From a virus, in UHGV virus genome UHGV-0077013: DNA of 23,130 bases, one strand, 5' to 3'. A model generated the notes under the pieces. That model was not told where the DNA came from. It did not search any database and was given only the letters and a program-made list of their open reading frames with translations. The position numbers were made by a program, and so were the translations under genes. How positions within the stretch are numbered: position 1 is the stretch's first letter; each line of letters starts with the position of its first letter. Shown piece after piece: positions 679-23,130 of the stretch.

Positions 679-759
679 ATCCCTATTCCCATCATTAAAT
701 AATCGGACTAATCCTACCAAGAATCAGCAAAACGACAAAACCCGTACTTAAGCTGGCTA

Positions 760-4804: not shown

Positions 4805-4966
4805 CGGTGTTCACCTTTTTATTCACGCGCCGGATATCACCCGCTGCTTCACGGCGCAGCCAGTAGTTGTTCTCGTCAACATTTCGCCCTTCGGCGGGCA
4901 AAAGGTCACCGCGGGCAGGGTCAGGCACTGACCGCCCTTTAACAGGTTTCACAAACATGAAGATTC

Positions 4967-6735: not shown

Positions 6736-6737
6736 AC

Positions 6738-6938: not shown

Positions 6939-6959
6939 GATTCTTCACCCGTCAGAACA

Positions 6960-6980
6960 GGGGGCGCGGTTCCGCGCCCC
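6960..6980 (-). terminator. GC-rich perfect hairpin just 3' of the major capsid gene (attenuator / mRNA stabiliser candidate)
   Basis: GGGGGCGCGGTTCCGCGCCCC is a perfect 8-9 bp GC stem lying 8 nt downstream of the capsid stop (6988-6990). No U-tract follows on the transcript, so it is not a classic intrinsic terminator. Confidence 0.4.
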
Positions 6981-6987
6981 TGAGTGA

Positions 6988-8193: not shown

Positions 8194-8207
8194 CGTATTT
8201 CTCCTGA

Positions 8208-8894: not shown

Positions 8895-10077
8895 CGGAGG
8901 GTTTCGTGGTCATGTTCATCGGTGTGAGATAGACATCACCACCGGGACGCGGATTCATATCTTCCAGGTCGCGGCAGTCATTGGGAGAGTAAATTCCCCA
9001 GTTAATCCCGGTGGCGTAGGCTTCAAAACGGGACTTCATATCCCCGCGCAGTAACGCCCCGGCGTTAAATTTGGCGTAATAAACGCCCTGCTTACTTTTT
9101 CGTACCAGTCCGGTGTTGATCCGCTGTTCGATGCGGGTCAGATACGGCACCAGTGAATAGTTGATAAATCCGAGCCCCAGTTCTTCGATATTGTTGAAGG
9201 TGGCGCGATCGGTGTTCTGCACCATGTGCAACGGCACCCGGAACAGACGACAGATTTCTTCAAGCTGAAACTTGCGGGTTTCCAGGAACTGGCTGTCCTC
9301 GGCGTTCAGCGCCATCGACTTCCAGTCCAGCCCCATCTCAAGGATCATCGGGCGGTGAGCATTACCAAGCCCGGTGTGACGCTCCTCAAAATCTTTCTTC
9401 AGGCGCTCGTAAGCCTGATCTGACAGCGTCTGCTCTGTACGCAACACACCCGACGTCACCGCGCCATTGCTGAACAGTCTGGCCCCGTGCTCTTCGGTCG
9501 CTGCCGCCAGCGATATTGCCTCGCGGGCATAGGCGATGGGATTCAGTCCCACCAGACCGTCCAGCGTCAGCGTGCGCACATGCCAGATATCTTCCTGGCT
9601 CAGTACATCCGTGGAGCCGTCCGGGAATGTGACCTGGTAAACCGGTTCCCAGCTACTGTTAAGCTTCGGTACCACACAACCTGGGTCGACGGGCAGCAGT
9701 TCAGCCACTTCGCCAAATGCTTTCACTTTGTAGGCGTAAAAGTTTCCCCGCAGGCACAGACAGGTGACCACCAGCTCCCAGAACTCCTGCGGCGTCATAT
9801 AGCCATTGGGACGCGTGGAGATCAGCTTATGCAGACGTTCGCCGGTGGCTCTCTGTTTCAGGCTGCCGTTCAGGTGATACAGGTTGCAGGGCAACATCCC
9901 GACCGACTCCGCCAGCACCCTGACGCAGGAAAAAACCGCCGTCAGTCGCATGGCCCGCTGGCTGCTGATCTGCTTTCCGGTATAGGTGTCATATGACAGC
10001 CCGATAGCATCCGCCAGCTCTGCTGGCGTGGTCACCGGTGCGTCACTTTTTCGTTGAAATAATCCCGAAAAGAACAC
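8836..10077 (-). CDS. Portal protein (HK97 family)
   Basis: 413 aa, in the canonical position after the large terminase. GTG start at 10075-10077 preceded by a GGAGGT Shine-Dalgarno. Confidence 0.88.
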   Translation of the reverse strand: MFFSGLFQRKSDAPVTTPAELADAIGLSYDTYTGKQISSQRAMRLTAVFSCVRVLAESVGMLPCNLYHLNGSLKQRATGERLHKLISTRPNGYMTPQEFWELVVTCLCLRGNFYAYKVKAFGEVAELLPVDPGCVVPKLNSSWEPVYQVTFPDGSTDVLSQEDIWHVRTLTLDGLVGLNPIAYAREAISLAAATEEHGARLFSNGAVTSGVLRTEQTLSDQAYERLKKDFEERHTGLGNAHRPMILEMGLDWKSMALNAEDSQFLETRKFQLEEICRLFRVPLHMVQNTDRATFNNIEELGLGFINYSLVPYLTRIEQRINTGLVRKSKQGVYYAKFNAGALLRGDMKSRFEAYATGINWGIYSPNDCRDLEDMNPRPGGDVYLTPMNMTTKPSDGSKAGKQKDNANADETTS

Positions 10078-10259
10078 TATTTACCTCCGCCGACAGACGG
10101 CTGTGTACGGTCGAGATATCGCGCCACCAGCCACGACCAGAACAGGCACAGCGCCCCGGCAACAACAAACCCCGCCGGGGGATAAATCAGCCAGGCACCA
10201 TACGCCAGCAAAAGCGCACCCAGCACGCCCACCAGAGGCGCGAGAATCAGCATGATCAT
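10077..10259 (-). CDS. Small two-helix membrane protein, function unknown
   Basis: 60 aa ([26 protein letters not shown]...[19 protein letters not shown]) with two predicted transmembrane segments. GAGGTAA Shine-Dalgarno 5 nt before the ATG. Wedged between the terL stop and the portal start. Confidence 0.55.
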
Positions 10260-10270
10260 AATTACCTCAG

Positions 10271-12004
10271 TTAAAGCGAGCGGATCCCGTAGGACTCAAT
10301 GTGATCAGACAGCGTGTCTTCTTTCTCGTACAGCATGGCTCTGCCAACCGCCATAATCAGCGCAACTGCACCATCAATTTTGTTTTCCGCCTGCTCTTTG
10401 ACGGGCTTCACCACATCATCGTTACCCGGAATGGTTTTGCCGACCACATTGCCGATACACCAGGTCATGATGGGATTGCCGTCATGATGAAAGCGCTCCG
10501 ATTCAATCGCCGCTTCCAGTTCTTTCATCGGATCGGACATGTTGGTGTAGTTCTGAATGATGGTGATGGGGTTCAGGTCTTCATCAGCAAGGTCATGCGA
10601 CAACCCGGTCGCCCCGAAGGGGTCGATGGGTGACTCACTGACCGGGCTGATTTTGTTCGCCGCTTTGGCCTCCTCGAGGATGTAGCGATAATCCACCTCT
10701 GCACCATCGGTAACGGTCAGAACGCCCATTTCCACCCATTTCTGAAAGCGTTCGGCTGTCCGGCGATCTTCATTTTTCTCGACGCTGTACACCGTGTCAT
10801 ACGGTACCCAGAAGCGCGGAGCCACACTGTAGTAATGCGTTTTACCGTCAATCTCGCGGGTATAAAGTCGCGCCATGCTGTTCATATCCAGCTTACGCGC
10901 CAGGTCAAAGGCCAGAATGCACGGCTGCCCCTCGAACTGCTCAAGGGTCAGTGATTTATCCTCGCAGCTCTGCCAGCTCACCAGGTTGAAATACGCCGAA
11001 CGCGCCGACACCCAGATATTGAGGTGTTTTGTTTTAAAGACGTTTGCCAGACGGGCGTTATTTTTCGCACGCTGCTGCTGACTTAACAAAAATTCGCGAT
11101 AAACCGACACGCCAATATTTGGATTGGCTTTTTCCAGCACCTGCGGGTCGGTCCAGTCGTCACCTTCATCAACGGTATAGATGATCCCGAACAGTTCATC
11201 GTTAGGCACCGAGCCGTTGAGCATCTCGATAACTTCCCGCCGCTTGTCGTAGCACGGCCCCTCAATGTTGTACCCGGCAGTAGTAATGGCCCACATCAGT
11301 GGCTGACGTCGCGCCCCCATCCCGGTAAGCATCGTGGTGTAAAGCGCATCGGTGGCGTGCTCGTGATATTCATCCACCACCGCACAGTGGGGTGATGATC
11401 CATCACCGGGGTTACCGATCAGCGGTTCAAACCGCGCGCCATCCTCCGGACGGTTCATGTTTGAGGCGTTAACCTCAATCCCGAACGCTTCCGTCAGCAT
11501 GGGTGTGCGTTTACACATCAGTCGCGCCGGGCGAAAGACTTCCCACGCCTGTTTCTCTGTCGTGGCACCGGAATACACTTCCGCGCCAAACTCGTTATCA
11601 CAGGCAAAACAATACAGGGCAACACCGGCAGAGATTGCTGATTTGCCGTTCTTACGGGGGATTTCGGTATACACCTCCCGGAAGCGGCGCAACCGGGTGC
11701 CTTTATTGACCCAGCCAAACGCACAGCAGATCACAAATAGCTGCCACGGCTCCAGCGTGATGGGCATCCGTTTAAATGCCCACTCACCCTTGGTGTGCGG
11801 CAACAGCTGAATAAATTTGGCGGCCCGTTCAGCCAGATCCTTGTCGAAGCGGTAACGAAACGACTTACTTTTTTCCGCCATCAGGTCATCAAGATGGCGC
11901 TGGCAGGCCTGAATCACAAACTGGCAGGCCACAATCTTTCCGCGCACGACATCCCGGGCATACTGATTGGCAGCATTTACGTTGGGGTAAGATTTCCGGC
12001 TCAT
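10271..12004 (-). CDS. terL: Terminase large subunit
   Basis: 577 aa with Walker A-like IPRKNGKS and a C-terminal nuclease-like region. Follows the small terminase gene. Confidence 0.92.
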
Positions 12005-12017
12005 GATTCGATGATTT

Positions 12018-12503
12018 TCAGATTGTCAGAAACGGGTTAGTGGCTTTCTTCTTCCCCGCCAGGCCAATCAGACGCTGTCGGCTGCTGGGGTCGAGTCCGA
12101 GCATTGCCCCCGTGCTGCTCATCTCGGACTCCTGTTCTTTTTTGGCGGTCAGCTCCGGATTTTTGACCATGCCACCCATTGCACCGGTGATGGTGTTACC
12201 CTGTCTGGCAATATTTTTCACGGCACGTCGCCAGAACTCATAGGCCACACACCACCGCTCAAGTACCGCCAGGTCAGTCACGCACAGCAGGCCCTGACCG
12301 CAGAGTTCTTTGGTTGTCAGTTGCCACATGATCGTGGCGAGAGGGAGATCTTCTTCAGCGAACCACTCCGGTGGCTCAACACCTTTGATGGGCGTAAAAA
12401 CAGGTTCATCTTTATTCAGGGCTCGCTTGCCGGGGTTTCCGGCCAGCGCCTTGCGCGCCGTTGGCTTGGGGCGACGCCCGGAACGCCCCGCCGTTCCAGC
12501 CAT
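12018..12503 (-). CDS. terS: Terminase small subunit (P27-family-like)
   Basis: N-terminus [30 protein letters not shown] is typical of P27-family small terminases. Preferred start is the ATG at 12501-12503 with an AGGAG Shine-Dalgarno; the track ORF begins at an upstream GTG (12512). Confidence 0.85.
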
Positions 12504-12713
12504 ATGCGGCACTCCTGGTTAAATTTCATTTTTCGCGGGTATAAAAAAACGATGGGGCGGGCAGTCCCGGATAGTCAGGGCTGTAGAGATTTGACTACCC
12601 CCTCCCCACTGGATTCAGGTTACTGCTATTCCGTTAATCGCTGCTTACGGGGATAGCTGCGTTGTGATTTTGACCATTCAGGTCGCCGCTATTTCCTCAC
12701 CGATTGGGTGCTA

Positions 12714-12742
12714 CGCGTGCGCGTACTTGTCCCGAAATACCA
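12714..12742 (-). promoter_or_regulatory. Conserved ~27-nt motif in the late-operon leader, also present in the early region at 19061-19089
   Basis: Plus-strand CGCGTGCGCGTACTTGTCCCGAAATACCA here versus GCGCGTGCGTACTTGTCCCGAAAACACCA at 19061-19089. Degenerate copies of the GTGCGCGTACT core occur at 18850 and 18966. Confidence 0.35.
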
Positions 12743-12753
12743 GAAACCGCCAG

Positions 12754-12775
12754 CCAGAGGATGATTTCCCTCTGG
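12754..12775 (-). terminator. Hairpin 3' of the PerC-like gene (weak terminator / attenuator candidate)
   Basis: Inverted repeat CCAGAGG-ATGATTTC-CCTCTGG. Only short U-runs follow on the transcript. Confidence 0.3.
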
Positions 12776-12779
12776 TGGT

Positions 12780-13061
12780 CTACCTTTGCCTCTTGCCGCC
12801 ATTTAACCGGAAGGCGTTACCGTTCGGTTGCGCTATCCCCATGCGGTGTTGCGTTTCGGTAACAGCTTTATGCAGGTCGCCAAAGTCCTCAACCTTCACG
12901 GGCGGGCGCTTCACGTTCTCCAGACACGTTTCACGGCGGCGCTTTATCCATTCCCGATCATCGTCCTCGGTGCATAACAGCATGACTTCCATCCATCGCG
13001 CTGCGGCGCGTCGGTACAGCCCTTTTGCTTCCAGATCCTCGGCTTTACTGTCGTTTACCAT
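12780..13061 (-). CDS. PerC-family-like small transcriptional regulator
   Basis: 93 aa; AEDLEAKGLYRRAAARWMEVM...DREWIKRRRETC resembles the PerC/Pch-type activator pattern as recalled. GGGGAG Shine-Dalgarno; sits directly upstream of the packaging operon. Confidence 0.5.
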   Translation of the reverse strand: MVNDSKAEDLEAKGLYRRAAARWMEVMLLCTEDDDREWIKRRRETCLENVKRPPVKVEDFGDLHKAVTETQHRMGIAQPNGNAFRLNGGKRQR

Positions 13062-13063
13062 GT

Positions 13064-13534
13064 TTATCTCCCCCAGAATGGCGTTTCATCGTCGAATGGT
13101 GGGCGTTGGTCAAAATCATCAGGGGTATTATATAACTCCCATCCCGGCGCGGATTGTGTTGTGTGGCCCCTGCTGGCTCCGCTTGCTTTGACTGATTCGG
13201 CCCGCTTCCCGCCGGGGCGTACCGTTCTGGCGCTGATCACGCTGTCGGCTACTACCTGATAACCTTGCTGTGTACCGCCATCCTTGCCCGTCCACTGATT
13301 GATCTGCATCGCTCCGGCAACACTGACTAAATCGCCTTTAACGTGTCCTGCCAGTGCGTCGGCCTGTTTGCCGAATGCCACCACGCCCAGCCAGAAAGTA
13401 ACCTCTCCGCCCTCTGCTGCATGGCAGGGCAGTGCCACCGCTAACCGGCCCATTGCCATGCTTGTACCGTTTGCTGTGGTACGGGTCTGGGGATCTGCCA
13501 CCAGCCGCCCGTATGCTGAAATTTGTGCTGTCAT
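13064..13534 (-). CDS. ssb: Single-stranded DNA-binding protein
   Basis: 156 aa with an OB-fold-like N-terminal half, a Gly-rich linker and an acidic C-terminal tail (DDFDQRPPFDDETPF) reminiscent of the SSB DDDIPF tip. Confidence 0.7.
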   Translation of the reverse strand: MTAQISAYGRLVADPQTRTTANGTSMAMGRLAVALPCHAAEGGEVTFWLGVVAFGKQADALAGHVKGDLVSVAGAMQINQWTGKDGGTQQGYQVVADSVISARTVRPGGKRAESVKASGASRGHTTQSAPGWELYNTPDDFDQRPPFDDETPFWGR

Positions 13535-13833
13535 AGATATTTCCTCATGTAGTCACTACCTCCGGGGATAATTTTCATTTCTTCCCTTAAAGGCCACTGC
13601 TCCGCCATTGCTGCGGTCGAGTGATTCCCGTCATCACGTCCGGCCTGTGCTGCCGTCCAGTGTGTTGCATATTCTGTAAATCCAATTTCTGCTGGCTGCC
13701 TCATCCAGTGGGCGATCATCCTCAAGGTCATTTGCAGGCTTTGGGTGTCGCCCTGTAATGCGCGTTTGTCAGTAAACCCCTTCAATGCTTCACGCTCCTG
13801 ATAGGTCATTTTCTGGCTGGTTTCTGTATTCAT
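13531..13833 (-). CDS. Hypothetical protein
   Basis: 100-aa ORF with AAGGTGG Shine-Dalgarno and an ATGA overlap with ssb. Confidence 0.5.
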   Translation of the reverse strand: MNTETSQKMTYQEREALKGFTDKRALQGDTQSLQMTLRMIAHWMRQPAEIGFTEYATHWTAAQAGRDDGNHSTAAMAEQWPLREEMKIIPGGSDYMRKYL

Positions 13834-13887
13834 TGCCCACCTTCGTTATAAGCTACCCCCCCCATAGAATCTTTTTGGGGGTGTAAT

Positions 13888-14136
13888 ATCCCTACCAATC
13901 CCTACTAACTGTCTCAGGCCACGAATGGCAAGGCTTTCAGACTGGTAGGCATTCAATTTTGTTGCCCTACATAACCCTACTTATCCCTACTAAATCACTT
14001 CAACGGCATTTTACTGCCTGTTTTATTTGGTAGGGATATGTAGGGATAAGTAGGGATAAAAATATATATCCCTACCTAGTTTAAAGCCTTGCTACGTCTG
14101 GCCTCGTCTCGTTTTTAGTAGGGCAGTAGGGATAAG
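13888..14136. repeat. Iteron array (about 11 copies of a GTAGGGATA-type unit) flanking an AT-rich spacer: putative replication origin / crr-like site
   Basis: CCCTAC cores at 13890, 13900, 13965, 13975, 13985 and 14070. GTAGGG cores at 14030, 14040, 14050, 14118 and 14126, plus a partial at 13944. Several are in 10-bp phased tandems. Opposed triplets flank a 39-bp AT-rich spacer (13991-14029). Lies immediately 3' of the primase/helicase gene. Confidence 0.7.
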
Positions 14137-14152
14137 TGCCGCCGTAAAAGTT

Positions 14153-16594
14153 TCAATCATCACTCTGCCCGCTCTCCACACCGTAAGCGCGTGGCATGAA
14201 CTCCTCAGCCTTCTCGTTATAGCCAACGTTGGTTTGCGCTCTGCCGTTAATGCTTCTCGTCAGGTAGCTGGCTCGGTACTCTTTTGCTGCTGATTTTATG
14301 GCGCGTGAAAACTTATTGACGGAAAGCGGTTTACCCAAACCGTGATACTCCATAAACGCCAGATAAAGATGATAAAGATACGTCCTCGGCTCTGGCTGGC
14401 CTGCCCATGTACCTCCGCCCATCATCATGCCTTTGGGTTCGTTCATGAAAAAAAGCGCCGCACACATATCGACAACCGGATCCGTGCCGCGTTTAACCTC
14501 TAGCGCCTCCTGCGAATCGCGCTGCTCTAGTAATAGTGCTTTTGCTTTGTTCTGGTCGGCAAAGGTGGTTAGCAGGTGGCGGATAATCACCGGGATTTCT
14601 CGCCTGATTTTTGCTGTTAAATCCGGGTCTTTGTCTGCGTCTGATACCGGGTTATTAAACGGGAATATCACGCGGCGGCGGGCAATGCCCCCGTTTCGCT
14701 CCGTGAATGTCATCGGCTCGTTATTGGTTGCCATAACAACGGCATTTATCACGGTTGTGAACTGCTTTTCATATTTCCCATCAATCTCTACCGGATCGCC
14801 GCCCGTAATGGCTTTAATCCCCGCACCCTCTCCAACATAGCGGGTCTGGTCAGGCATAATAATCAGGCTTTTTCCTACGAACTGCGCCCGTCCCCGTGCG
14901 GTGTCCAGCGTCATCATGCTACCGCTGGCGGTGTTGTGTTCACCTGCCAGCGTGGTTGCTATACTGCTGAATACGGATTTCCCACTGCCGCCCTCGCCAG
15001 TTATCTCAATGAATAGCTGCCAGTCGTGACGCTTCGCCAGCACCATAAACAAGGCTGCTTTGATACGCTCGGCCTTATGATGGTCGCCAGCCGTTGCATG
15101 ATTCAGCCAACGGGTAAAATTGGGGGCGCTGGTGGTAATATTTTCCCCCGGCGCTGGCGGGGTGTAGGTGATCCCATTGTGGTTCATCAGCCAGTTACCC
15201 GGCGAATGGGCGGAAAACGTCTGCGTGGCGAGGTCATAAACGCCGTTATCAAAACCAATCAGATCCCCGCTCCGCTCACCAATTACCGGTATTTGCAGCT
15301 TCATGGTTGCGACAACCGATTTAATCCCCTTTTCGGTGTAGTGGGCTTCGTGCTCGTCGAAAATTGCCACCATAACCCTTTCTAATTCACTGTCTGGTAG
15401 CTTCACCCATACGCCAGATTCGTAGCAGTAAACAGTGCCACTATCAGGGTTAACCGCCAACATATCCCATCGAGATGAAAGCAACCGCGCTTTCTGGCTG
15501 GCTGCCATTTGTGCAATATCTCCGACTTCGGCTTTACGGCGGGATTTACCGCCCGCAATGGCCTGTAGTTGTGGTTTCACGGCTTCCCCCTGAATCTGGT
15601 ACATCGAATCGTTAAACGCAGCCGTAGCGACTTCCAGCCCGTTTTGCTGGCGGTAGTCGTCCCAGTCGGCTTTGTAGTCTGTCGGCGGCAGCGCCACCCA
15701 GCCAGCCACGGATAATGCTGCTTTCTCTGCGGCATCTTTGCCCGTGTTCGCCTGTTCGTCCTGCTGGTGGTCGTTATCTGCGGCAATGATAATTTGCGAC
15801 TGCGGGTGTTTCCGGCGCATTACTCTGGCAACGTGGATCAGGTTCCCGGCGTCAATTGCCGACACTGTAAGCGCGTCCGGGCGCATCAGGTGAACGGACA
15901 GGGCCGTCGCCAGCCCCTCGGCAATTAATACGCTCTGCGGCTGTTCCGGTGCGTTAACGGCGTGATATGCCCCGCGCTTTGCTGAACCTGTCAGGAGTCG
16001 CTTCTCTCCCTGCGGTGTAATGGTTTGCGCTGCTGCCACTGCGCCGGATTCGTCCACCAGCTCCAGCAATAACGAACCATCCGGCATTACCGGATATTTA
16101 AACCCGGTCAGCCCTTTTGATTGCAGGTAATCAGATTCGCCCTGTGTGGCACTCTGGCGCATTCCGGCATACAGACGGGCAAACGTAGCCCTTCGCTGCT
16201 CTGCGTCCTCTGCTGCCTGTTTCTGGCGCTCCTGCTCACGCTGCTGGCGGTCAGCTTCCAGTTGCTCCCTTCTATGGCTCGCTGCCACCGGATCGGTTTC
16301 CGCTGCCCGGTAATCAATACCCAGCACATCAGCGGCAAGCCTCGCCGCTTCTGTGGTGGCGCAGTTGTTCACCTTCTTAATCAGGTCTAAACCGTCACCA
16401 GCGCCACACTGATTGCAGATAAAGCTACCGCGCCCGTTGTCGTCGAATCTGAAACGGTCTTTTCCACCACATGCAGGGCATGGAGAATGGCGGCGCGATG
16501 AATCAGGCACGTCGATAGACAATCCAGCCAGCACATAAGGCCAGCGCCCGGCGGCGGCACTGGTCACTTCGCGGATAAGGTCGATATTACGCAT
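14153..16594 (-). CDS. P4 alpha-like primase/helicase (zinc-binding primase domain plus P-loop NTPase)
   Basis: N-terminal zinc ribbon CPACGGKDRFRFDDNGRGSFICNQCGAGDG, a TOPRIM-like IIAADNDH motif, and Walker A GEGGSGKS. Preferred start is the ATG at 16592-16594, coupled (ATGCGTAA) to the upstream ORF; the track ORF extends to 16651. Confidence 0.9.
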   Translation of the reverse strand: MRNIDLIREVTSAAAGRWPYVLAGLSIDVPDSSRRHSPCPACGGKDRFRFDDNGRGSFICNQCGAGDGLDLIKKVNNCATTEAARLAADVLGIDYRAAETDPVAASHRREQLEADRQQREQERQKQAAEDAEQRRATFARLYAGMRQSATQGESDYLQSKGLTGFKYPVMPDGSLLLELVDESGAVAAAQTITPQGEKRLLTGSAKRGAYHAVNAPEQPQSVLIAEGLATALSVHLMRPDALTVSAIDAGNLIHVARVMRRKHPQSQIIIAADNDHQQDEQANTGKDAAEKAALSVAGWVALPPTDYKADWDDYRQQNGLEVATAAFNDSMYQIQGEAVKPQLQAIAGGKSRRKAEVGDIAQMAASQKARLLSSRWDMLAVNPDSGTVYCYESGVWVKLPDSELERVMVAIFDEHEAHYTEKGIKSVVATMKLQIPVIGERSGDLIGFDNGVYDLATQTFSAHSPGNWLMNHNGITYTPPAPGENITTSAPNFTRWLNHATAGDHHKAERIKAALFMVLAKRHDWQLFIEITGEGGSGKSVFSSIATTLAGEHNTASGSMMTLDTARGRAQFVGKSLIIMPDQTRYVGEGAGIKAITGGDPVEIDGKYEKQFTTVINAVVMATNNEPMTFTERNGGIARRRVIFPFNNPVSDADKDPDLTAKIRREIPVIIRHLLTTFADQNKAKALLLEQRDSQEALEVKRGTDPVVDMCAALFFMNEPKGMMMGGGTWAGQPEPRTYLYHLYLAFMEYHGLGKPLSVNKFSRAIKSAAKEYRASYLTRSINGRAQTNVGYNEKAEEFMPRAYGVESGQSDD

Positions 16595-16928
16595 GGTTGC
16601 CTCCTGCCACGGTCGCGCCCATGTCTTTAACCATGCTTTGCCATATCTCACGCCCGACGTCAGTCAATCCGTCATTAGTGACGCAACGCTCAAGAAGCTC
16701 GACCCCCACGGTTTCCCACTGCGGGTAGGACACTTTCATGGCTGCCAGTGTGTAGCTATCGATCAGGCTGCGAACGCCTTTTACTCCATTGACGATTTCC
16801 ACACGGACGGCGAGGCCGTCCGCATCAACCATGAAATAGTCACCGCCGCTGGTGGAGGTAATGTGGTTATACAGTGCCGACGCATACTTATTCGCCAGCG
16901 CATTCAGTCTGAAATTTTTAGTAATCAT
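16587..16928 (-). CDS. Hypothetical early protein
   Basis: 113-aa ORF whose stop overlaps the primase start. Confidence 0.5.
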   Translation of the reverse strand: MITKNFRLNALANKYASALYNHITSTSGGDYFMVDADGLAVRVEIVNGVKGVRSLIDSYTLAAMKVSYPQWETVGVELLERCVTNDGLTDVGREIWQSMVKDMGATVAGGNHA

Positions 16929-16937
16929 GTCGCCCCC

Positions 16938-17564
16938 TCAGTGCGGCAGCGGCATTTCAGGCCAGCCGTTTTCATCCAGTTCAGCTATAAAGCTGTTGTG
17001 AAGTTCAGCAAGCGTTTCACGCCCGAACGGGGTCAACTCGCCGCGCTCCGTGTCGATCATGGCCTGATAAAAAACAATGGCGTTCGCTGTTCCCTGCTCA
17101 ATGCCGTAGCGCTCAACCATTGCGCCCTCCATGTTGTTAGCCATCGCCAGACGTTCCGCGAACGGGTAAACCACAATCCCCGCCGTGCCATTGGAGTAAA
17201 TCGCCACCTGCGATGAAGTGCCGTCAGACTCAGTTACCGTGGTTGTGCCGTTTTCGCGCTTCATCTCAGAAATGAACGTCGCAGCAATCAGCCAGCGCCA
17301 CATAGTGACGTTATGCTGCGCGGTGAAGTCGAACCAGCCACGCGCCCCGCCATCAGCAACGGCAAAATGAATGGCGTATCCGATATCTGGCTTATCGTCG
17401 TACTCTCCGGCGTCAAGGCCGTTCACGGCGCTCTCGTAGCTGATAAGAGCAACCTGCTCATATCCCCCGGCATCATTGCGGGTCATGATATTGACGCCGT
17501 GCGGTGTGGCTTCGGCGTGTAATAAGTCGGCATTTCCCGATTTAATGGTCGGTGCGTTGCTCAT
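16938..17564 (-). CDS. Hypothetical early protein
   Basis: 208-aa ORF with an ATGA overlap to the upstream gene. Confidence 0.55.
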   Translation of the reverse strand: MSNAPTIKSGNADLLHAEATPHGVNIMTRNDAGGYEQVALISYESAVNGLDAGEYDDKPDIGYAIHFAVADGGARGWFDFTAQHNVTMWRWLIAATFISEMKRENGTTTVTESDGTSSQVAIYSNGTAGIVVYPFAERLAMANNMEGAMVERYGIEQGTANAIVFYQAMIDTERGELTPFGRETLAELHNSFIAELDENGWPEMPLPH

Positions 17565-17824
17565 GCGCTGCCCTCCGCATCAATTCTGGCTATATCGACA
17601 ATCGTCAGGACTTTACTCAGCCAGCAATACGCGATGGCTGCTTGCTCAACTTCGAGGAGTGGTAATAAATCGGTCATAACGTGAGCCAGCCCATTGCGGG
17701 CGCGGGTCATGCGTTCTGCTGTTCGGTCCGCCAGCGTAAAATCATCCGGGTATGCTTCTTTACGAGATAGCATCGATTCGGCTTCCAGATCTGCCGGGTG
17801 GCGATAGATGGTATTTATGTTCAT
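17561..17824 (-). CDS. Hypothetical early protein
   Basis: 87-aa ORF with ATGA overlaps on both sides. Confidence 0.5.
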   Translation of the reverse strand: MNINTIYRHPADLEAESMLSRKEAYPDDFTLADRTAERMTRARNGLAHVMTDLLPLLEVEQAAIAYCWLSKVLTIVDIARIDAEGSA

Positions 17825-18135
17825 TTGCCCGCCCTCCCTTTGGCTTCTTTTTCACTGATTGAGCGCAAGAATGCGGCGTTTGCAGCGCTATCGTTCAGCG
17901 CCAGCGCAACTTCTCCGATATGTCCCAGCATTGCGCCTAATCTGTACATATCAGCCTTAGCGCTTTCCTCCGGGTAGCCATCGCTACCAGCCGCCCAGAA
18001 CATGAGGCTACCAATGGCACTTACGCCCAGCATTAAATCATCCACGGCATCACTGGCGCAGCTCTCAATTCCTTTCAGATCATCAGGCGTACAACCATCA
18101 AATTTGCAGGACACTAAATCGTTATACATGCTCAT
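17821..18135 (-). CDS. Hypothetical early protein
   Basis: 104-aa ORF with ATGA overlaps on both sides. Confidence 0.5.
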   Translation of the reverse strand: MSMYNDLVSCKFDGCTPDDLKGIESCASDAVDDLMLGVSAIGSLMFWAAGSDGYPEESAKADMYRLGAMLGHIGEVALALNDSAANAAFLRSISEKEAKGRAGK

Positions 18136-18311
18136 GCCGCCACCTCACGAACGCGGGTAATCTGGATGTGGGAAAGGCGTTCATTTCTGGCCTGATTTAG
18201 CGCCTCAGCTTTGGCGCTGATCGCGCTGCGGGCGTCAACGATATAAACGAACTCGACTAATTCGCCGCTCCGGGCGGTGGCGCATCCTGCAACACGGAAG
18301 TAATTAAGCAT
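18132..18311 (-). CDS. Hypothetical small early protein
   Basis: Preferred ATG at 18309-18311 (MLNYFRVAG...), overlapping the upstream stop as CATGCTTAA. The track ORF starts at an upstream TTG (18341). Confidence 0.45.
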   Translation of the reverse strand: MLNYFRVAGCATARSGELVEFVYIVDARSAISAKAEALNQARNERLSHIQITRVREVAA

Positions 18312-18495
18312 GTGCGCCCCCTGTGCGAATACGTCCGGCAAAAAAGCAAACGTGATCCCGCGCCAGAATGCGGCGGGCTTCCTGCTCAGTCTCTGCGGCG
18401 ATATGGTGAATTTTGACGGTAATTGTCGGCATATCGCGGCGAACTGCGGCGATAATCCAGATAAATTGCGGTTTTTGGGTAGGGGTAGTAGCCAT
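18304..18495 (-). CDS. Hypothetical small early protein
   Basis: Strong CAGGAGG Shine-Dalgarno 8 nt before the ATG at 18493-18495 (MATTPTQKPQFIWIIAAVRR...). The longer 119-aa track ORF is probably an over-extension. Confidence 0.5.
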   Translation of the reverse strand: MATTPTQKPQFIWIIAAVRRDMPTITVKIHHIAAETEQEARRILARDHVCFFAGRIRTGGAHA

Positions 18496-18653
18496 TATGG
18501 CAGCCTCCTGTAACTGGGATTTATTCCCACCACCGGAAACGCCAATTTCACTGGTGGTGAGCTGAACAGGGTTGGCGTAACCGGCGTTACAGGAAACCGG
18601 CGCGGATCGCTCCGCCCCCATCCAGCCCACCATTACTTTTTGAGCAATATGGG

Positions 18654-19253
18654 CTATAGCCATATCGCTGGGAAAGAGGTGTGCAGATGCGAGGACACAA
18701 AAAAGACGCTCGGCGCGTCATGTGTCGCCTGTAACATTATCAGGACGCCAATCCCGGCACCAGATTTTGCTGGTGCGCTATAACCATAAACCGGGTTGGC
18801 GATAGTCGGCAAGCCCTTTTTTATGGACTCCAGAAACTCACCTTCGCGCGTGCGCGTACTGTTGCATAAATTCCCTGCATCTAGTGGTGATGTCAGAAAA
18901 ATCTTCCCGCCTCGTGTAGTGATGATGGGAAAATCTTCCTCGCGTAGTGACCCCCAATAAATCTTCGTGCGCGTACTGGTCTCGAAACTCTCCTCGTCAC
19001 CACGACGAGAAAATGAGGAGCTGGCATTAGCTGGCACTGTTATGCCAGCTTCGCATTCATGCGCGTGCGTACTTGTCCCGAAAACACCAAGATTTGTAAA
19101 GATCTGGCGGTGGCAAATGTCAGGTTTTGACAGGTTCCAAACGTCGCTATTTGTCGCAATCTGGCGGCGGGCTGCTTTGCTCCAGACGTTAACATTTGCA
19201 TACATCAGGCCAGCCAGGGGAAAGGCTTTATTCTGGATGGCGGCATTAAGCAT
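18654..19253 (-). CDS. Questionable ORF spanning the repeat-dense region
   Basis: 199 codons; the ATG at 19251-19253 overlaps the antirepressor stop (CATGCTTAA). The translation is low-complexity and the DNA is full of direct repeats and hairpins, so it may be non-coding or encode only a short N-terminal peptide. Confidence 0.2.
   Translation of the reverse strand: MLNAAIQNKAFPLAGLMYANVNVWSKAARRQIATNSDVWNLSKPDICHRQIFTNLGVFGTSTHAHECEAGITVPANASSSFSRRGDEESFETSTRTKIYWGSLREEDFPIITTRGGKIFLTSPLDAGNLCNSTRTREGEFLESIKKGLPTIANPVYGYSAPAKSGAGIGVLIMLQATHDAPSVFFVSSHLHTSFPAIWL
18846..19171. repeat. Repeat-dense region between the antirepressor gene and the small early genes
   Basis: Three degenerate tandem units (AAATCTTC...CGYGTAGTGA) at 18897, 18930 and 18958. 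GTGCGCGTACT-type cores at 18850, 18966 and 19063. A 23-bp direct repeat ATTTGTxxxxATCTGGCGGxGG at 19092-19114 and 19149-19171. Hairpins at 19028-19049 and 18993-19009. Confidence 0.5.
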
Positions 19254-20079
19254 GATTAGCCCCCAGATGTTTAGCTAACCAGCGCTGAGAGAGGCGGATT
19301 AGCTCGGCTTTACGCAGGTCATATCCCATACCCATATCAATCAGCGTAATGTTGGTACTCTCCAGGTAGGCGAGGTGTTCCAGTTGCCCTGCGTTCATGC
19401 TGTCCCGTGGTTCGCCAGTAATGTCATTTGCCTGCGCCCACTGCTTCGCCGTCATGCCACCCAGCACGATACGGGCGATCATGTTGCTCTCGTTGCTGTA
19501 GTGGCGAGCCTGCGTCTGTTTACCCTGTTCTGCGCGGGCGCTTTCCAGCGCTACGCACATCGGTTTAAACAGGTTGGCGGCACTGATACGGGCTTTTAGC
19601 TGGCGACGATAGCGGGCGGCGATTTCAGGCACGCTACGCTGTAATTCTTCCTCGCACTGGATGAAATAACGGCGGATAGCGCGGCCCTGTTCAGTGCGTT
19701 CGATCATTGCCAGTTCTTTCGCCATTCCGACACTTAACAGATAGTCTTTGCCGGGTCTGCCAGAGTGCTTAATCTTGCTGTAAGCCGCGCCATTCGGGCT
19801 TTTCCCCAGATTTGGGGAAATTGTTTTATGGACTGAGTAATCGTGCCCAATGGTGAAGTCATATTCAGAGATGCGATCAGTGATCCATGTAGAGAAGTCT
19901 TTTCCCACGCCCAACGCTTTGTGTAACGCTTTTGCGCTAACAATATTGGTTTCACGCCCACCGATATGACCAGGAATAACCGGGACAATTGTGGCAAATT
20001 CATTACCGTTAATTGTTCCCTGATAGGCGTTCAGATGAGGGGCGGCCTCAGAAATTAATCTGCTTTTTTCGATGTTCAT
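19246..20079 (-). CDS. Antirepressor (AntA-like N-terminal and KilA-C/ANT-like C-terminal domains)
   Basis: 277 aa. ...KDFSTWITDRISEYDFTIGHDY... resembles the AntA domain and ...LSVGMAKELAMIERTEQGRAIRRYFIQCEE... the KilA-C/ANT domain. Confidence 0.7.
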   Translation of the reverse strand: MNIEKSRLISEAAPHLNAYQGTINGNEFATIVPVIPGHIGGRETNIVSAKALHKALGVGKDFSTWITDRISEYDFTIGHDYSVHKTISPNLGKSPNGAAYSKIKHSGRPGKDYLLSVGMAKELAMIERTEQGRAIRRYFIQCEEELQRSVPEIAARYRRQLKARISAANLFKPMCVALESARAEQGKQTQARHYSNESNMIARIVLGGMTAKQWAQANDITGEPRDSMNAGQLEHLAYLESTNITLIDMGMGYDLRKAELIRLSQRWLAKHLGANHA

Positions 20080-20091
20080 TTTCAGTCTCCG

Positions 20092-20526
20092 TTAGGCGGC
20101 GGTGAGATTGTCCGGGTATAGGTTGAGAATGTCGGCAATTTCAGGCTGAGAAAGTCCCTGATAGCCGCCAGCGTCGGCGTTATGGTTCACAAGCCGAATA
20201 ACTTTTAGAACGTCACCGCGCCCGGTAAAGCGATAGCGTAAATGTGACCCTATCCCGTCGGGGTTCTTTTCGTCTATACGCTCAAGCTGAATATCAAGCC
20301 TGCGCTCTAACTCGCTGGCGTAGTTCCTTCCAGATGAAAGGCGGCAATATTGCAGAATGTCATTTTCTGTCCATCCCTCTATACCAGTACGCAGCATATA
20401 GACGCGGGCGCGGTGTTTCTTTGGGGTACGCTTAGGTACTTGTACCGGGCTGGTGGTCGGCGTAATATCAGACGTGCGAATATCTGAGTTAGCCGCCTGC
20501 TGTACGGGGCGGTTTTTCTTTTTCAT
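20092..20526 (-). CDS. Hypothetical protein with basic N-terminus
   Basis: 144-aa ORF whose start overlaps the alpA-like stop (TAATG). Confidence 0.5.
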   Translation of the reverse strand: MKKKNRPVQQAANSDIRTSDITPTTSPVQVPKRTPKKHRARVYMLRTGIEGWTENDILQYCRLSSGRNYASELERRLDIQLERIDEKNPDGIGSHLRYRFTGRGDVLKVIRLVNHNADAGGYQGLSQPEIADILNLYPDNLTAA

Positions 20527-20744
20527 TACGCCACCTTTCCCCGGCGCTCCGCCAGCCAGTTGTGAATCTCAACCGCATCAAACGCAGTCACGTTATCTGT
20601 TAGCTTCACTGGGCGTGGAAGAGTGCCATTTTTAACCCATCTATCAATAGTAGGCAGTGAAACACCTAGCAATTCCGGCATGCGAAAGCGACGGATGTAT
20701 CCAGTTGTTGGGATAGCTGATGATGCTGGCTTGTGTGCTGTCAT
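20526..20744 (-). CDS. alpA: AlpA-family transcriptional regulator / excisionase-like protein
   Basis: 72 aa with a helix-turn-helix pattern ...MPELLGVSLPTIDRWVKNGTLPRPVKL...AFDAVEIHNWLAERR, typical of the AlpA family. Confidence 0.75.
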   Translation of the reverse strand: MTAHKPASSAIPTTGYIRRFRMPELLGVSLPTIDRWVKNGTLPRPVKLTDNVTAFDAVEIHNWLAERRGKVA

Positions 20745-20825
20745 ATCTCTAGTAACCTCTCTGATAGCTCATGAAGTTACTTAAAGTTTAGTGGTTGCCC
20801 ATACAGTATTTCTATTAAGACTAGA

Positions 20826-20877
20826 ATCTATTGAAAGAAATTATAAATCTATTGAAAAAATACTGATCCACTGAAAG
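20826..20877. promoter_or_regulatory. Three direct repeats (ATCYAYTGAAA) about 80-130 bp upstream of alpA: candidate operator/promoter element
   Basis: atctattgaaag at 20826-20837, atctattgaaaa at 20847-20858 and atccactgaaag at 20866-20877, spaced about 20 bp apart in a very AT-rich intergenic region. Confidence 0.35.
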
Positions 20878-21214
20878 ATTGCAAATGCAGGTGGGATAAT
20901 TATTTTCTTTATTTTCAATTAGTTACCAGTTTAAAAAATCATTGTTTTATCAAAGAGTTATATCTTTCATCGTCATTCATCATGTTTTTACATTTCCTTT
21001 TATCTTTTATTATTCAATTGGTTGAGTCGGTTTATAATGGCTCATGATGGCTTAAAATGCTAATGATAGCTGGCGTATCTTTTAGAGATGGGGTGATTAC
21101 AGATGAACTAAGCCGAACAGATATAGCAATGGCTAGGCATAGAATTATCTATGCTGGTGGAGATGGGTAAACAGGTAATGCCCCGCCATTGCTTTGGAGG
21201 GGCGTGAAAAGTGA

Positions 21215-21865
21215 TTAGTCGAGATCGTGGACAGCTAATAAAGCCCGTGAGATTTTTTCTAGGAATGTGGCTTTTGCTATTCCTTTATGGGATATCCCTT
21301 CATCCTTGATTAAGGTTTCTATGTCACGGTATATAGCTGTGCGATTAGGTTTCCCATTTTGGGTGTAGGAAGATGAGCCTGATTTTTTTATCAGCAGATG
21401 TACTATCAACCCCATCATTTTCATTGTCCCGTTTTCCTCATCCTGCTTTCTATGCTGCCCACGTCCGCTGCGGTTGGTTTCTTTGATGTAGTTTACTAAC
21501 TGGAGTCCTCCAAGGTTTCGGGCTTTTTCTTCCCAGCCCTTGGTGCCACGCAAATCATCAATCGCTTCTGATATTTTCTGAACAATTATTTCTGGTGTAT
21601 TTGTGTCAATAAATGGGTAAGAAGCTAAGAAAATATCAAGGGCATGGCAAGGCTCGTCTTTACTAGTTTTTTCACCTCTGTACACCTTGATAGCTCTGGC
21701 AAGATGAGTTCTGACAAAATCGACATATTCGAAATTTTCCTCAGGCACATCGCTAATGCGCATAGATGGGTTTAGGCCAGCCAAGGCCACAGCCATTTCA
21801 TGAGGGGTAATCGATACAGATGAACAAAGCCGTTCGATTGGCGATTTTCTCAAGATGTTGTTCAC
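21215..21865 (-). CDS. Hypothetical low-GC cargo protein translationally coupled to the integrase
   Basis: 216-aa ORF with a GTG start at 21863-21865 overlapping the int stop (ATGTGA) and a GGAGG Shine-Dalgarno 5 nt upstream. A spot count gives about 38% GC. No recognisable domain. Confidence 0.55.
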   Translation of the reverse strand: MNNILRKSPIERLCSSVSITPHEMAVALAGLNPSMRISDVPEENFEYVDFVRTHLARAIKVYRGEKTSKDEPCHALDIFLASYPFIDTNTPEIIVQKISEAIDDLRGTKGWEEKARNLGGLQLVNYIKETNRSGRGQHRKQDEENGTMKMMGLIVHLLIKKSGSSSYTQNGKPNRTAIYRDIETLIKDEGISHKGIAKATFLEKISRALLAVHDLD

Positions 21866-23130
21866 ATTTGCCTCCGGGCTTTATCGAATGGCGTTACGTT
21901 GTAGTCTTTTCCGCTTTCCAGTGCCACCAGCAAATCACACCACTGCGCCAGCGCCGCTTTACGCTCATCAAAATACTGGTGACGGTTATAGATACCTTCC
22001 ACGCCTTTAATTTTGTGGTTGAGGCATCTTTCAGCCACTACGGGATCAACGCCCAGCGCGGCTAAATGGGTGCGGGCTGTGCGCCGGAAGTCGTGAATCG
22101 TGAAATTAGGCACATCCGGCATTTCAGCGCGAACCTTAGCCAGTGCTACGGGTAAAGTGCTTTCCTGAATATGTGGGATCATTCTGTTTTGCATCTTTCT
22201 GGCTGGCAGTACCCATGCGCTGTTGCATGAGAACGTTTTAAGCTCTCTCAGCCATTCGACGGCTGGCGGTGCTAATGGGATGTCTATAGCGTCGCCGTTT
22301 TTACTGCGTTCTTCTGGTAAGTGCCAGATGCCTTTGTCCAGGTCGAACTCCTCCCAGCGGGCGGCGCATAACTCCATTTTGCGGACGCATAACGCTAACA
22401 GTAATTTGAACGTGATTTCGTTCTGGCGACTGAATCCCTTAGCTGTGCGCATAGCCTGAAACAGTCGGATTAGTTCGCCACGTGTTAACCAGCGGTCGCG
22501 GGAAACTTCTTTCCCTCCGGCGTCTGCCACCTCAAAGGCTGAACACGGGTTAATCTCCAGTGCGTGCCGCTTAATGCCGTAGTCAAATATGCGGCGTGTC
22601 CAGCGCAGAACGTCCGTTGCTATGGTCGGCGCTCCACGGTCAACAATACTTTTCAGCATGTCGTCGATATGGCGCGGCTTCACGTCCTCCACCTTCATGC
22701 TGCCAATGCATGGGTTTATATCTTTGTCGATACGGCGGCGGAGTATATCGGGGTGCTTCCAGCGCGGGAGGATCTGACGCTCAAAGTATTCAGCGGCAAG
22801 CTCTGAAACGCGCATAGCGTTCTTCTCTGCTTCCATCTTCGCCAGTGCTTCGGTTTTGCGCTTCTGCTTCTCTCCTGCAACGTCATAGCCCAACGCAACG
22901 CGAGCCGATAGCTCTTTGGCTGTCTCTCTGGCCTTTGATAGTGATAGCTCGGCATATGAGCCGATAACCATTGCTCGCTGCTTACCTGCGAATTTATAGC
23001 GAAAGCGCCAGAAAGGGACTGTGTAGTTTTTGGGGTAGCAAATATAAAGGCCGTTGCCATCGGCCCTTCCTTCAAATCTATCTCCGGCCTTTATCCATGC
23101 GCGGATCTGCATGTCTGTAATCTTTGGCAT
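21862..23130 (-). CDS. int: Tyrosine integrase, P4-like
   Basis: 422 aa with an arm-binding-type N-terminus (MPKITDMQIRAWIKAGDRF...) and a C-terminal catalytic region (HDFRRTARTHLAALG...GIYNRHQY). The ATG is the last triplet of the window. Confidence 0.92.
   Translation of the reverse strand: MPKITDMQIRAWIKAGDRFEGRADGNGLYICYPKNYTVPFWRFRYKFAGKQRAMVIGSYAELSLSKARETAKELSARVALGYDVAGEKQKRKTEALAKMEAEKNAMRVSELAAEYFERQILPRWKHPDILRRRIDKDINPCIGSMKVEDVKPRHIDDMLKSIVDRGAPTIATDVLRWTRRIFDYGIKRHALEINPCSAFEVADAGGKEVSRDRWLTRGELIRLFQAMRTAKGFSRQNEITFKLLLALCVRKMELCAARWEEFDLDKGIWHLPEERSKNGDAIDIPLAPPAVEWLRELKTFSCNSAWVLPARKMQNRMIPHIQESTLPVALAKVRAEMPDVPNFTIHDFRRTARTHLAALGVDPVVAERCLNHKIKGVEGIYNRHQYFDERKAALAQWCDLLVALESGKDYNVTPFDKARRQM

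Follow-up and report, generated by a model that had tools for sequence, protein, structure and literature searches.

A common DNA-packaging site probably joins a P4/PICI-type satellite island to an SfII/SfV-like phage late operon in a 23,130-nt viral sequence

The window, which is the whole 23,130-nt stretch of DNA that was analysed, carries all 33 of its 33 substantial open reading frames (ORFs) on the minus strand, confirming the single-strand layout of the original prediction. Read in the order satellite then phage, these ORFs encode integrase, AlpA, AntA, a primase accompanied by iterons, SSB, PerC, TerS, TerL, head, and tail proteins. The gene list given earlier, from P4-type integrase to contractile tail, is borne out by Pfam matches, and the satellite and virion modules are contiguous within the window as claimed, an arrangement found nowhere else in the collections searched. 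The features, from the right end of the window to the left, are:

21862-23130, minus strand: P4-type tyrosine integrase (Pfam Arm-DNA-bind_3, Phage_int_M, and Phage_integrase, E about 1e-17 each)
20745-21865, minus strand: variable cargo slot, containing an ORF of 216 aa (21215-21865) and a gap of 470 bp at about 40% GC
20526-20744, minus strand: AlpA-family regulator (Pfam Phage_AlpA, E 7e-6)
19246-20079, minus strand: AntA-type antirepressor (Pfam AntA, E 4e-21; PHROGs anti-repressor Ant, E 8e-37)
18654-19253 and 18304-18663, minus strand: two ORFs with Ash-family matches (Pfam Phage_ASH)
18699-18776, minus strand: isrK / P4 seqA-type leader RNA (Rfam RF01394, 75 bits, full length)
18550-18637, minus strand: C4 / P4-CI-type antisense immunity RNA (Rfam RF01695, 76.9 bits, full length)
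18304-18514, minus strand: seqC/b'-like target site and 63-aa Icd-like ORF (sequence reading, complementarity)
14153-16651, minus strand: P4 alpha-like primase-helicase (Pfam Zn_Ribbon_Prim, Toprim_3, D5_N, DUF5906, and Pox_D5)
13886-14137: replication origin of the satellite, with CCCTAC iterons at 10-bp phasing in two opposed sets
12780-13833, minus strand: end of the satellite before cos, with a 100-aa ORF, SSB, and a PerC-family activator
13064-13534, minus strand: SSB (Pfam, E 1e-14)
12780-13061, minus strand: PerC-family activator (Pfam, E 1.5e-29)
12519-12607, minus strand: cos region and junction, in three pieces (sequence comparison)
1-12512, minus strand: SfII/SfV-like late operon, TerS through tape measure, including a YmfR-like protein and a 239-aa lipoprotein-like moron
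12018-12512, minus strand: TerS (Pfam)
10271-12004, minus strand: TerL (Pfam)
6988-8193, minus strand: HK97-type capsid (Pfam)
3308-4804, minus strand: sheath (Pfam)
760-2541, minus strand: tape measure, a 593-aa ORF (RefSeq annotation of the counterpart in the prophage of Escherichia coli GDSC2239PM)

In the virion half, Pfam also matches portal, S78 protease, connector proteins, tail terminator, tube, and tail assembly chaperone. At the other end, the integrase start codon reaches the window's final base. The cargo ORF corresponds to phrog_30524, of unknown function; PADLOC found no match in the cargo slot, which in other island copies holds 293-aa or 281-aa genes. The primase-helicase is 813 aa long when counted from the ATG at 16594 and is named "phage/plasmid primase, P4 family" in RefSeq.

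By sequence comparison, the left part (1-12518) is the late operon of an SfII/SfV-like lambdoid myovirus, the putative helper type of phage. Positions 1-12567 match a complete lambdoid SfII-like prophage in GDSC2239PM, the closest complete genome, at 99.85% identity (19 substitutions, no indels), and the window's TerS, which lies in this range, is the phage's own. The terS-to-tape-measure region (998-12512) has 97-98% DNA identity to SfII, SfI, and SfV. Upstream of terS the GDSC2239PM prophage encodes CI/Cro/CII, replication proteins, Q, lysis proteins, and HNH. Both of the complete prophages read (2/2) have a lambdoid early region on that side, with CI/Cro some 10 kb from terS, O/P-type replication genes, and Q, as well as lysis genes and HNH. 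In every context examined this virion module is part of a canonical lambdoid SfV/SfII-like prophage in which lysis genes and HNH precede terS; an HNH gene precedes cos in 117/117 classifiable phage copies and is absent from the window. By analogy, CI/Cro, the lysis genes, and HNH are probably present elsewhere in the source genome. A canonical CI/Cro switch nearby and a common phage type had been named as findings that would speak against a new mosaic element, and related prophages indirectly point to both in substance.

The right part (about 12569-23130) is, on the same kind of comparison, a common E. coli phage satellite of P4/PICI type, which supports the earlier recognition of a P4-like satellite module in this half. 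Positions 12519-23130 differ from an island in GDSC2239PM by one base, at 18280 and outside int, and the two integrases are identical. The GDSC2239PM island is 12,249 bp long, lies between yicC and dinD, has no virion genes, and is 1.36 Mb from the SfII-like prophage and in the opposite orientation. The window keeps 10.6 kb of these 12.25 kb, from a satellite whose usual place is directly behind yicC; the satellite's distal 1.45 kb, with its last three genes, is missing. The core of the island is P4-like (integrase, AlpA, isrK/seqA leader, C4/CI RNA, Icd-like ORF, alpha primase-helicase, and iteron origin), and its plan is that of an enterobacterial PICI, with a PerC allele, cos at the end, and no capsid, tail, or lysis genes. 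The assembly index has 2879 blocks that list its PerC protein sequence. The iterons claimed earlier are present: 11 of the window's 13 CCCTAC sites fall in 13890-14131, directly downstream of the primase gene, with 10-bp phasing and in two opposed sets, the same layout as in Gram-negative PICI origins (PMC6092414).

Neither strand of 12018-23130 was found to encode a protein repressor, and antisense-RNA immunity of the P4/P1 type, a known explanation, would account for the "missing repressor." The Rfam gathering scores are 50 for RF01394 (isrK) and 45 for RF01695 (C4), to be compared with the 75 and 76.9 bits obtained. The isrK-type leader has its own terminator-like hairpin (18705-18719, U-tract 18699-18704), and a published account calls IsrK a structural homolog of the SeqA RNA of P4 (PMC4825925). 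The C4 apical loop, UCCUGUAAC, has complements at 18728-18735 and at 18506-18514, matches of 8-9 nt that are each within chance expectation; the two sites lie on either side of the C4 gene, in the arrangement that seqA and seqC have in P4. The latter site overlaps the Shine-Dalgarno sequence of the 63-aa ORF (ATG 18495, stop 18304), which RefSeq calls "Icd-like" and which stands at the head of the replication operon. An antisense RNA rather than a protein repressor would keep the satellite silent, its loop being complementary both to the leader site and to the ribosome-binding site that serves the Icd-like ORF. Pfam Phage_ASH matches two ORFs, for which the PHROGs label is "transcriptional repressor/regulator," but the isrK and C4 RNAs are encoded in the same DNA, and a T6/T7 difference within the isrK terminator breaks the Ash ORF in two. 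The unconventional immunity mechanism proposed earlier holds insofar as no CI/Cro switch is present, but it is not novel, being of the known P4 CI / P1 c4 type (Rfam).

The cos region consists of a 49-nt block (12519-12567) identical in SfV, the GDSC2239PM prophage, and the GDSC2239PM island, a central stretch of island type (12568-12584), and a right-end block, GGGGAGGGGGTAGTCAAATCTCT (12585-12607). The alignments place the join of the two parts inside the 49-nt block, which sits within about 95 nt of homology between the two halves, islands and SfV-like phages having about 45 nt of similar sequence in common besides the block itself. The first base of the SfV GenBank record corresponds to about position 12570 of the window, and the 49-nt switch stretch adjoins the starting point of the SfV and SfIV records. 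The block was found with 0-1 changes in 24/24 island copies examined. The central stretch, beside the predicted cut, differs between most islands and most phages; however, three islands have the phage type and one phage (L057) has the island type, which indicates that cos sequences have been exchanged both ways in nature.

Searches of 5426 complete E. coli genomes, of IMG/VR, of JGI metagenomes, and of the GTDB representatives gave no copy of the hybrid junction, and none of the 128 cos-block copies in the loci collected is a hybrid. PerC is followed by TerS in none of 34 genomic contexts of exact window proteins; these show PerC leading to a PRiA4_ORF3 region, in most cases with a 61-aa ORF in between, or a variant island that lacks this PerC, or lysis genes followed by HNH and TerS. 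A crude estimate shows no enrichment of genomes with both elements (at least 70, where 97 would be expected, among 5426), and the finding of zero hybrids in at least 70 complete genomes with both elements implies that real fusions are rare. Rare recombination at cos and an assembly join are about equally likely origins of the junction. A real join would be a single crossover at cos, for example one by which a circular phage genome inserts into the cos of a resident island; a helper-satellite cointegrate or an inversion would be other forms of such a crossover.

Taken together, the window is best explained, with a probability of roughly 0.8, as two known mobile elements, independent of each other, that abut at a common cos site. 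The original prediction of one new mosaic phage is not sustained, because its halves correspond to independent elements far apart in the closest complete genome that meet at a cos they have in common. In the proposed life cycle, helper phage development would switch on AlpA, which in E. coli PICIs is an activator that the helper switches on (PMC6092414), and the island would then excise and replicate from its own origin. AntA may help to derepress the helper prophage; the earlier suggestion that the antirepressor targets a different co-resident prophage agrees with satellite biology. The helper's TerS/TerL/HNH machinery would cut and package island concatemers at cos, and three island copies (36.7 kb) would fill one SfV-sized head (37.1 kb). 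An SfII/SfV-like phage is the putative helper of the island, on the basis of cos identity and this size arithmetic.

The junction could also be purely an in-silico product, a contig misjoined across the 49-95-nt cos repeat, and this is a substantial possibility, if somewhat short of an even chance. As to the identity of both parts it is a sub-case of the explanation preferred here: the source strain would hold an intact island at yicC and a prophage elsewhere, as GDSC2239PM does with its two elements 1.36 Mb apart. The switch point lies exactly in the sole stretch common to both elements, the window begins partway through the tail module, as though a repeat at that place had ended the source contig, and the absence of the hybrid from every collection searched points the same way. 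The final k-mer of common assemblers is longer than 49 nt and paired-end inserts are far longer, so misjoins at a 49-nt exact repeat should be rare, which argues somewhat against simple misassembly; natural exchange of cos between islands and phages is also demonstrable, so recombination at the site does occur. It is unlikely that the junction is real and the fused element viable, the satellite having captured the helper's entire late operon by a single cos crossover. If true, this would be a two-cos prophage packageable from the chromosome, or a self-sufficient hybrid with RNA immunity and an alpha-type primase, and an intermediate caught in the act toward capsid-forming PICIs (cf-PICIs) or toward new phages from satellite-helper pairs.

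A single autonomous temperate phage, with P4-like early and SfV-like virion modules and its missing functions just outside the window, would suit modules that are contiguous and co-oriented with only a functional-looking cos between them, and cf-PICIs do couple PICI early regions to HK97-type packaging and capsid genes (PMC10085698). Such a phage is nonetheless improbable: no second example exists in any collection searched, the satellite genes replace the HNH and lysis cassette found before cos/terS in every related phage examined, and the satellite's distal 1.45 kb is gone. Both halves are nearly base-for-base the separate elements of one strain, so any fusion would be very recent and not a lineage. 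It is highly improbable that an integrase placed the satellite into a helper prophage beside a late gene and co-oriented with it, as in helper-embedded PICIs (HE-PICIs), even though the satellite immediately precedes terS and has the same orientation. An integrase-made junction would fall at att, beside int and beyond the three genes that have been cut off, while the observed junction lies inside cos, 10.6 kb from int and at the int-distal end; the satellite part, integrase gene included, also matches the yicC-sited island of GDSC2239PM, the sole difference (18280) being outside int. With no att junction in a helper late gene and a truncated satellite joined in cos, the HE-PICI assignment was rejected.

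Both elements are of known kinds, and the junction is modestly interesting. If it is an artefact, then a helper-copied cos is a short repeat across which contigs or prophage callers may fuse elements into a seeming "mosaic phage." If it is real, the common cos is a recombination hotspot linking a satellite to helper structural genes and a plausible route to capsid-forming satellites. In either case, SfV/SfII-like phages, which also drive Shigella serotype conversion, become the predicted helper of a very common E. coli island.

Among known phages, the SfV-like temperate myoviruses have an HK97-type head, a Mu-type contractile tail, and a cos used in HNH-TerS-TerL packaging, and the window's virion genes and cos are 97-99.9% identical to theirs. 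The left end of cos in SfII, SfI, SfIV, and SfV is the same as in the window; however, in these phages the HNH and lysis cassette precedes cos, where the window has the satellite instead. The cf-PICIs resemble the window in joining a PICI-type early region to HK97-type TerS, TerL, portal, protease, and capsid, but they are without tail or holin genes, and the window's late genes match a resident prophage at 99.85% identity and not a diverged satellite lineage. A cf-PICI assignment was rejected because sheath, tube, and chaperone (Pfam) and tape measure (RefSeq annotation of the matching prophage) are present.

With P4 and P4-like elements the satellite has in common the P4-type integrase, AlpA, the alpha primase-helicase, the CI/C4 antisense RNA, the seqA (isrK)-type leader, and putative flanking target sites, and perhaps also an Ash/epsilon region. 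Only 4/7 components of the SatelliteFinder P4 core set (PMC10085698) are present. No Pfam or PHROG match to psu, delta, or sid was found in the satellite-half ORFs scanned (12018-23130) or in the three island ORFs outside the window, which implies that P4-style capsid-size redirection and a P4-style late-gene transactivator are both absent. The cos of P4 is placed between int and psu (PMC8628076), while the satellite has a cos other than the P2 type, at the end opposite int.

E. coli PICIs have int, alpA, pri-rep, an origin with two iteron sets, and a helper-like cos, some carry PerC alleles, and their multimers are packaged in full-size heads (PMC6092414). Of the characters by which Gram-negative PICIs are recognised, the native island has int, alpA, pri-rep, the two-iteron-set origin, a size of about 10-15 kb, a specific att site at yicC, and no structural or lysis genes, and a helper-like cos was found in 24/24 island copies; the window itself, however, runs on into virion genes. 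Like the EcCICFT073-type PICIs (PMC6092414), which are about 12 kb and chromosomally integrated, the native yicC island has int, alpA, primase/replication genes with the origin, accessory genes, and a helper-like cos in the same order, lacks virion and lysis genes, and has a size suited to multimer packaging. No Rpp-like/TerS packaging-redirection or capsid-morphogenesis gene was recognised in it. The cos of the EcCICFT073-type PICIs is that of lambda or phi80, while the yicC island copies that of an SfV/HK97-type phage (P27-family TerS plus HNH), and its terS-proximal cos side is identical to the phage's, whereas in EcCICFT073 the cosB side differs. The yicC island further differs from the EcCICFT073 type in having a P4-type RNA immunity region. 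In P1/P7 (c4-icd-ant) and Gifsy-1 (isrK-orf45-anrP) an antisense or leader RNA controls a small, Icd-like ORF at its ribosome-binding site (PMC4825925), as it would in the window, and as in the window this ORF sits in an antirepressor-containing operon; in the window, however, the AntA gene is upstream rather than downstream of the RNA genes, and the operon predicted to be controlled leads to the primase. The comparison shows that the island pairs PICI architecture with P4-type RNA immunity.

The original prediction treated this DNA as one mosaic phage in which a P4-like module, carrying an antirepressor without a repressor, was joined to a virion module. The window is better explained as a satellite lying beside the late genes of its probable helper, the two meeting at a shared cos, with immunity of a known RNA type. 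In a three-way alignment it is prophage sequence up to 12518 and island sequence from 12568, and the 49 nt between them (12519-12567) are identical in prophage and island. The predicted genes themselves (integrase, AlpA, AntA, alpha-type primase, terminase, head, and tail) are correct and all on the minus strand, as are all biologically sensible ORFs of any length in the window. The virion half contains:

12018-12512, minus strand: TerS
after TerS, in order, minus strand: TerL, small membrane protein, portal, S78 protease, HK97-type capsid, connector/completion proteins
further on, minus strand: tail terminator, sheath, tube, tail assembly chaperone, tape measure, 239-aa lipoprotein-like ORF

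Among the phage genomes searched, Shigella phages SfII, SfI, SfIV, and SfV have 97-98% identity to 998-12512, and no phage record matches the window past about 12607 except for one 53-bp fragment. Escherichia coli GDSC2239PM, the closest complete genome, has a complete lambdoid prophage at 1.406-1.447 Mb, oriented opposite to its island, with a late region that differs from 1-12567 of the window by 19 substitutions and no indels; the RefSeq annotation of this prophage supplied the name of the tape measure. It encodes a LexA-family CI, Cro, and CII, along with replication and Nin genes, Q, and three lysis proteins, two of them a holin and an endolysin. An HNH endonuclease gene immediately precedes its terS, and its baseplate, fibre, and glucosyltransferase genes lie past the left end of the window. 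In the prophage of strain I3, the match is 100% in terS and terL, and the remainder is a different mosaic. The 239-aa ORF (1-720, minus strand) has a lipoprotein signal (lipobox LLGGC) and belongs to phrog_1353, of unknown function. It lies in a variable slot flanked by the genes for tape measure and DNA circularisation, where related prophages have a 176-aa ORF, a 164-aa ORF, an OB-fold/tRNA_anti-like gene, or nothing.

The satellite half contains:

21862-23130, minus strand: P4-type tyrosine integrase (Arm-DNA-bind_3, Phage_int_M, Phage_integrase)
low-GC stretch after int in transcription order, minus strand: 216-aa ORF of unknown function
20526-20744, minus strand: AlpA
beside AlpA in transcription order, minus strand: 144-aa ORF
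19246-20079, minus strand: AntA antirepressor
18654-19253 and 18304-18663, minus strand: two ORFs matching the Pfam Ash family
between the Ash-family ORFs and the primase-helicase, minus strand: five small ORFs
14153-16651, minus strand: P4 alpha-type primase-helicase
downstream of the primase-helicase, minus strand: a 319-bp gap, then a 100-aa ORF and SSB
12780-13061, minus strand: PerC, separated from TerS by a 267-bp gap

The predicted iterons are real. The window has 13 CCCTAC hexamers in all, and 11 of them lie within 13890-14131, directly downstream of the primase gene, as two opposed sets with 10-bp spacing. The interval between int and alpA (20745-21865) is about 40% GC, with the 216-aa ORF and a 470-bp gap, and is where a hotspot for cargo or defence genes is positioned; in other island copies the slot is filled by a 281-aa gene or by a 293-aa ORF, which in one copy is DUF6387. 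PADLOC found no defence genes among the cargo and unknown ORFs.

In a search of 5426 complete E. coli genomes, 12519-23130 matches GDSC2239PM at 67.6-78.3 kb with a sole base difference, at position 18280. With limits defined against the empty K-12 site, the GDSC2239PM island is 12,249 bp, lies directly after the yicC stop codon rather than in a tRNA gene, and adjoins dinD. Past PerC it continues with about 210 bp, a 61-aa ORF, a PRiA4_ORF3-family gene, and a 119-aa ORF before the chromosome resumes, and it has no virion genes. No exact repeat of at least 10 nt flanks the island, which shares only TGTACACGG at its ends; the empty K-12 site has a 3-nt overlap. Just past the right end of the window, the int-yicC spacer (40254-40441 of L001, a locus compared with the window) has repeated ATGTACA / TGTACAC motifs that are probably integrase arm sites. 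Members of the island family also occur at other chromosomal sites, as in L008 (CP099014.1, 3.67 Mb) and L155 (CM130301.1), beside xdhC-type genes, or beside proBA with a 404-aa integrase, and one strain has two copies.

The cos region at the junction has three parts, in transcription order:

12607-12585: conserved block GGGGAGGGG..GTCAAATCTCT
12584-12568: central stretch of about 17 nt
12567-12519: 49-nt block GGACTGCCCGCCCCATCGTTTTTTTATACCCGCGAAAAATGAAATTTAA

The GenBank records of SfV and SfIV begin at a base corresponding to about 12570, where the 49-nt block starts; this base is taken as the left cohesive end on the presumed layout of those records. Past this block, phage sequence runs on into the ribosome-binding site of terS and island sequence into the 61-aa ORF. 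All 24 island copies examined have the block with 0 or 1 changes, whatever their surroundings. The usual central stretch is CCTGACGTCTTCC in phages and CCCTGACT(A/G)TCCG in islands; however, three islands (L009, L151, and L157) have the phage version, and one ordinary phage contig (L057, 658-724) has the island version. It follows from the common block and these central stretches that the island took its cos from SfV-like phages, and that phages and islands still exchange cos sequence, in both directions. A literature search for published work on an SfV-linked satellite cos gave nothing relevant. One IMG/VR contig (IMGVR_UViG_2711768073_000020) has two HNH-cos-terS copies 2.9 kb apart (3527-3575 and 6398-6446), which could be a duplication or misassembly at cos.

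Among the sequences searched, the order PerC-cos-terS is found only in the window. The region 11300-13800 occurs in one piece in none of the 5426 complete E. coli genomes, where phage-side matches all end at 12607-12612, and a junction-spanning pattern has no match in IMG/VR, GTDB species representatives, or JGI metagenomes. A compact degenerate junction pattern matches one IMG/VR contig, L057, rejected as a hybrid because its gene order is the HNH-cos-terS of an ordinary phage and only its central stretch is island-type. The loci collected contain 128 copies of the 49-nt block: 117 are HNH-cos-(terS), seven are PerC-cos-island genes, four have no recognisable upstream gene, and none is hybrid. 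Four proteins of the window (PerC, the head closure protein, the primase, and the 59-aa ORF) were looked up as exact sequences and are all common. In 34 of their genomic contexts, read from the longest contigs, PerC is never beside TerS; these are HNH/TerS-type phage or island arrangements, or island variants. Since the hybrid arrangement is found nowhere else, the join is an artefact or else a real event that is rare. At least 70 complete genomes have both elements without a single hybrid, which argues against real fusion being common; co-occurrence of helper and satellite shows no enrichment by inclusion-exclusion on genome counts, a crude estimate.

An assembly join across the cos repeat and real recombination are considered about equally probable. 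The final k-mer of an assembler is usually longer than 49 nt, and a repeat shorter than this argues against an assembly join. A real join could arise when a circular phage genome crosses over once with the cos of a resident island, through a helper-satellite cointegrate, or by inversion between two inverted cos copies, although in GDSC2239PM the last would flip 1.36 Mb within one replichore and is unlikely to be tolerated. The elements are of known kinds, the putative junction is unique, and what is new is modest.

In the original prediction, the lack of a repressor had suggested either regulation of another resident prophage or unconventional immunity. The plus-strand ORFs have no Pfam match. 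The 'ash/icd' DNA contains two RNA genes found with Rfam:

18699-18776: isrK (RF01394), full length, 75 bits (gathering score 50)
18550-18637: C4 antisense RNA (RF01695), full length, 76.9 bits (gathering score 45)

Given these genes, the predicted immunity is unconventional only in being of the known P4 / P1-c4 RNA type. In P4 lysogeny, the CI RNA holds replication genes off by pairing with seqA (upstream) and seqC (downstream), leading to premature termination (PMC4825925). Target sites were sought here by exact complementarity. Complementarity to the apical loop (UCCUGUAAC) of this C4-like RNA is present at 18728-18735, within the isrK-like leader, and at 18506-18514, overlapping the AGGAGG Shine-Dalgarno of a 63-aa Icd-like ORF that starts at 18495. 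Each complementarity is singly within chance expectation, but both share one loop and are placed where P4 and P1 models put targets. TTGCCG - 18 nt - TATGGT, just upstream of the isrK start, is a plausible promoter. Compared with an intact 316-aa version (L150, another locus compared), the Ash ORF is broken into two ORFs, of 199 and 119 aa, by one base: the U-tract (18699-18704) of the isrK terminator hairpin differs as T6 versus T7. What is conserved at this spot is probably RNA and not protein, which suggests that the Ash/Icd-like proteins of annotations are in part a reflection of conserved RNA genes.

By SatelliteFinder definitions (PMC10085698), the island has, counting the Ash-family matches, four of seven P4-like core components and, because psu, delta, and sid are absent, is not a P4-like satellite in the strict sense. 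It fits the descriptive Gram-negative PICI definition, without the capsid-morphogenesis and TerS/Rpp components of the PICI set, and the most fitting description is a satellite on the PICI plan whose integrase, RNA immunity, and primase are P4-type and whose cos is SfV-type. Its tail genes set the whole window apart from cf-PICIs, and a junction located at cos, a long way from int, sets it apart from helper-embedded PICIs.

The gene set, origin, RNA genes, cos identity, and size and site of the native island are direct observations around which a life cycle can be proposed. At rest, judging from the RNA families, the antisense RNA would shut the operon from the Icd-like ORF to the primase. A developing helper would turn on AlpA, which in EcCICFT073 is the helper-induced activator required for transfer (PMC6092414). 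The island would then excise and replicate from the iteron origin with its own primase-helicase and SSB. A resident helper may also be derepressed by AntA, the role that epsilon has for P4, and the earlier hint that the antirepressor acts on another prophage was apt. Helper TerS, TerL, and HNH would cut island concatemers at cos. Three island units are 36.7 kb, compared with 37.1 kb for SfV and 38-41 kb for its relatives, a multimer solution to head size like that proposed for EcCICFT073 (PMC6092414). However, the EcCICFT073 cosB is unlike that of its helper and needs Rpp (PMC6739421), whereas the terS-proximal side of cos in the present island is identical to that of the phage, and a redirecting protein for packaging seems unneeded.
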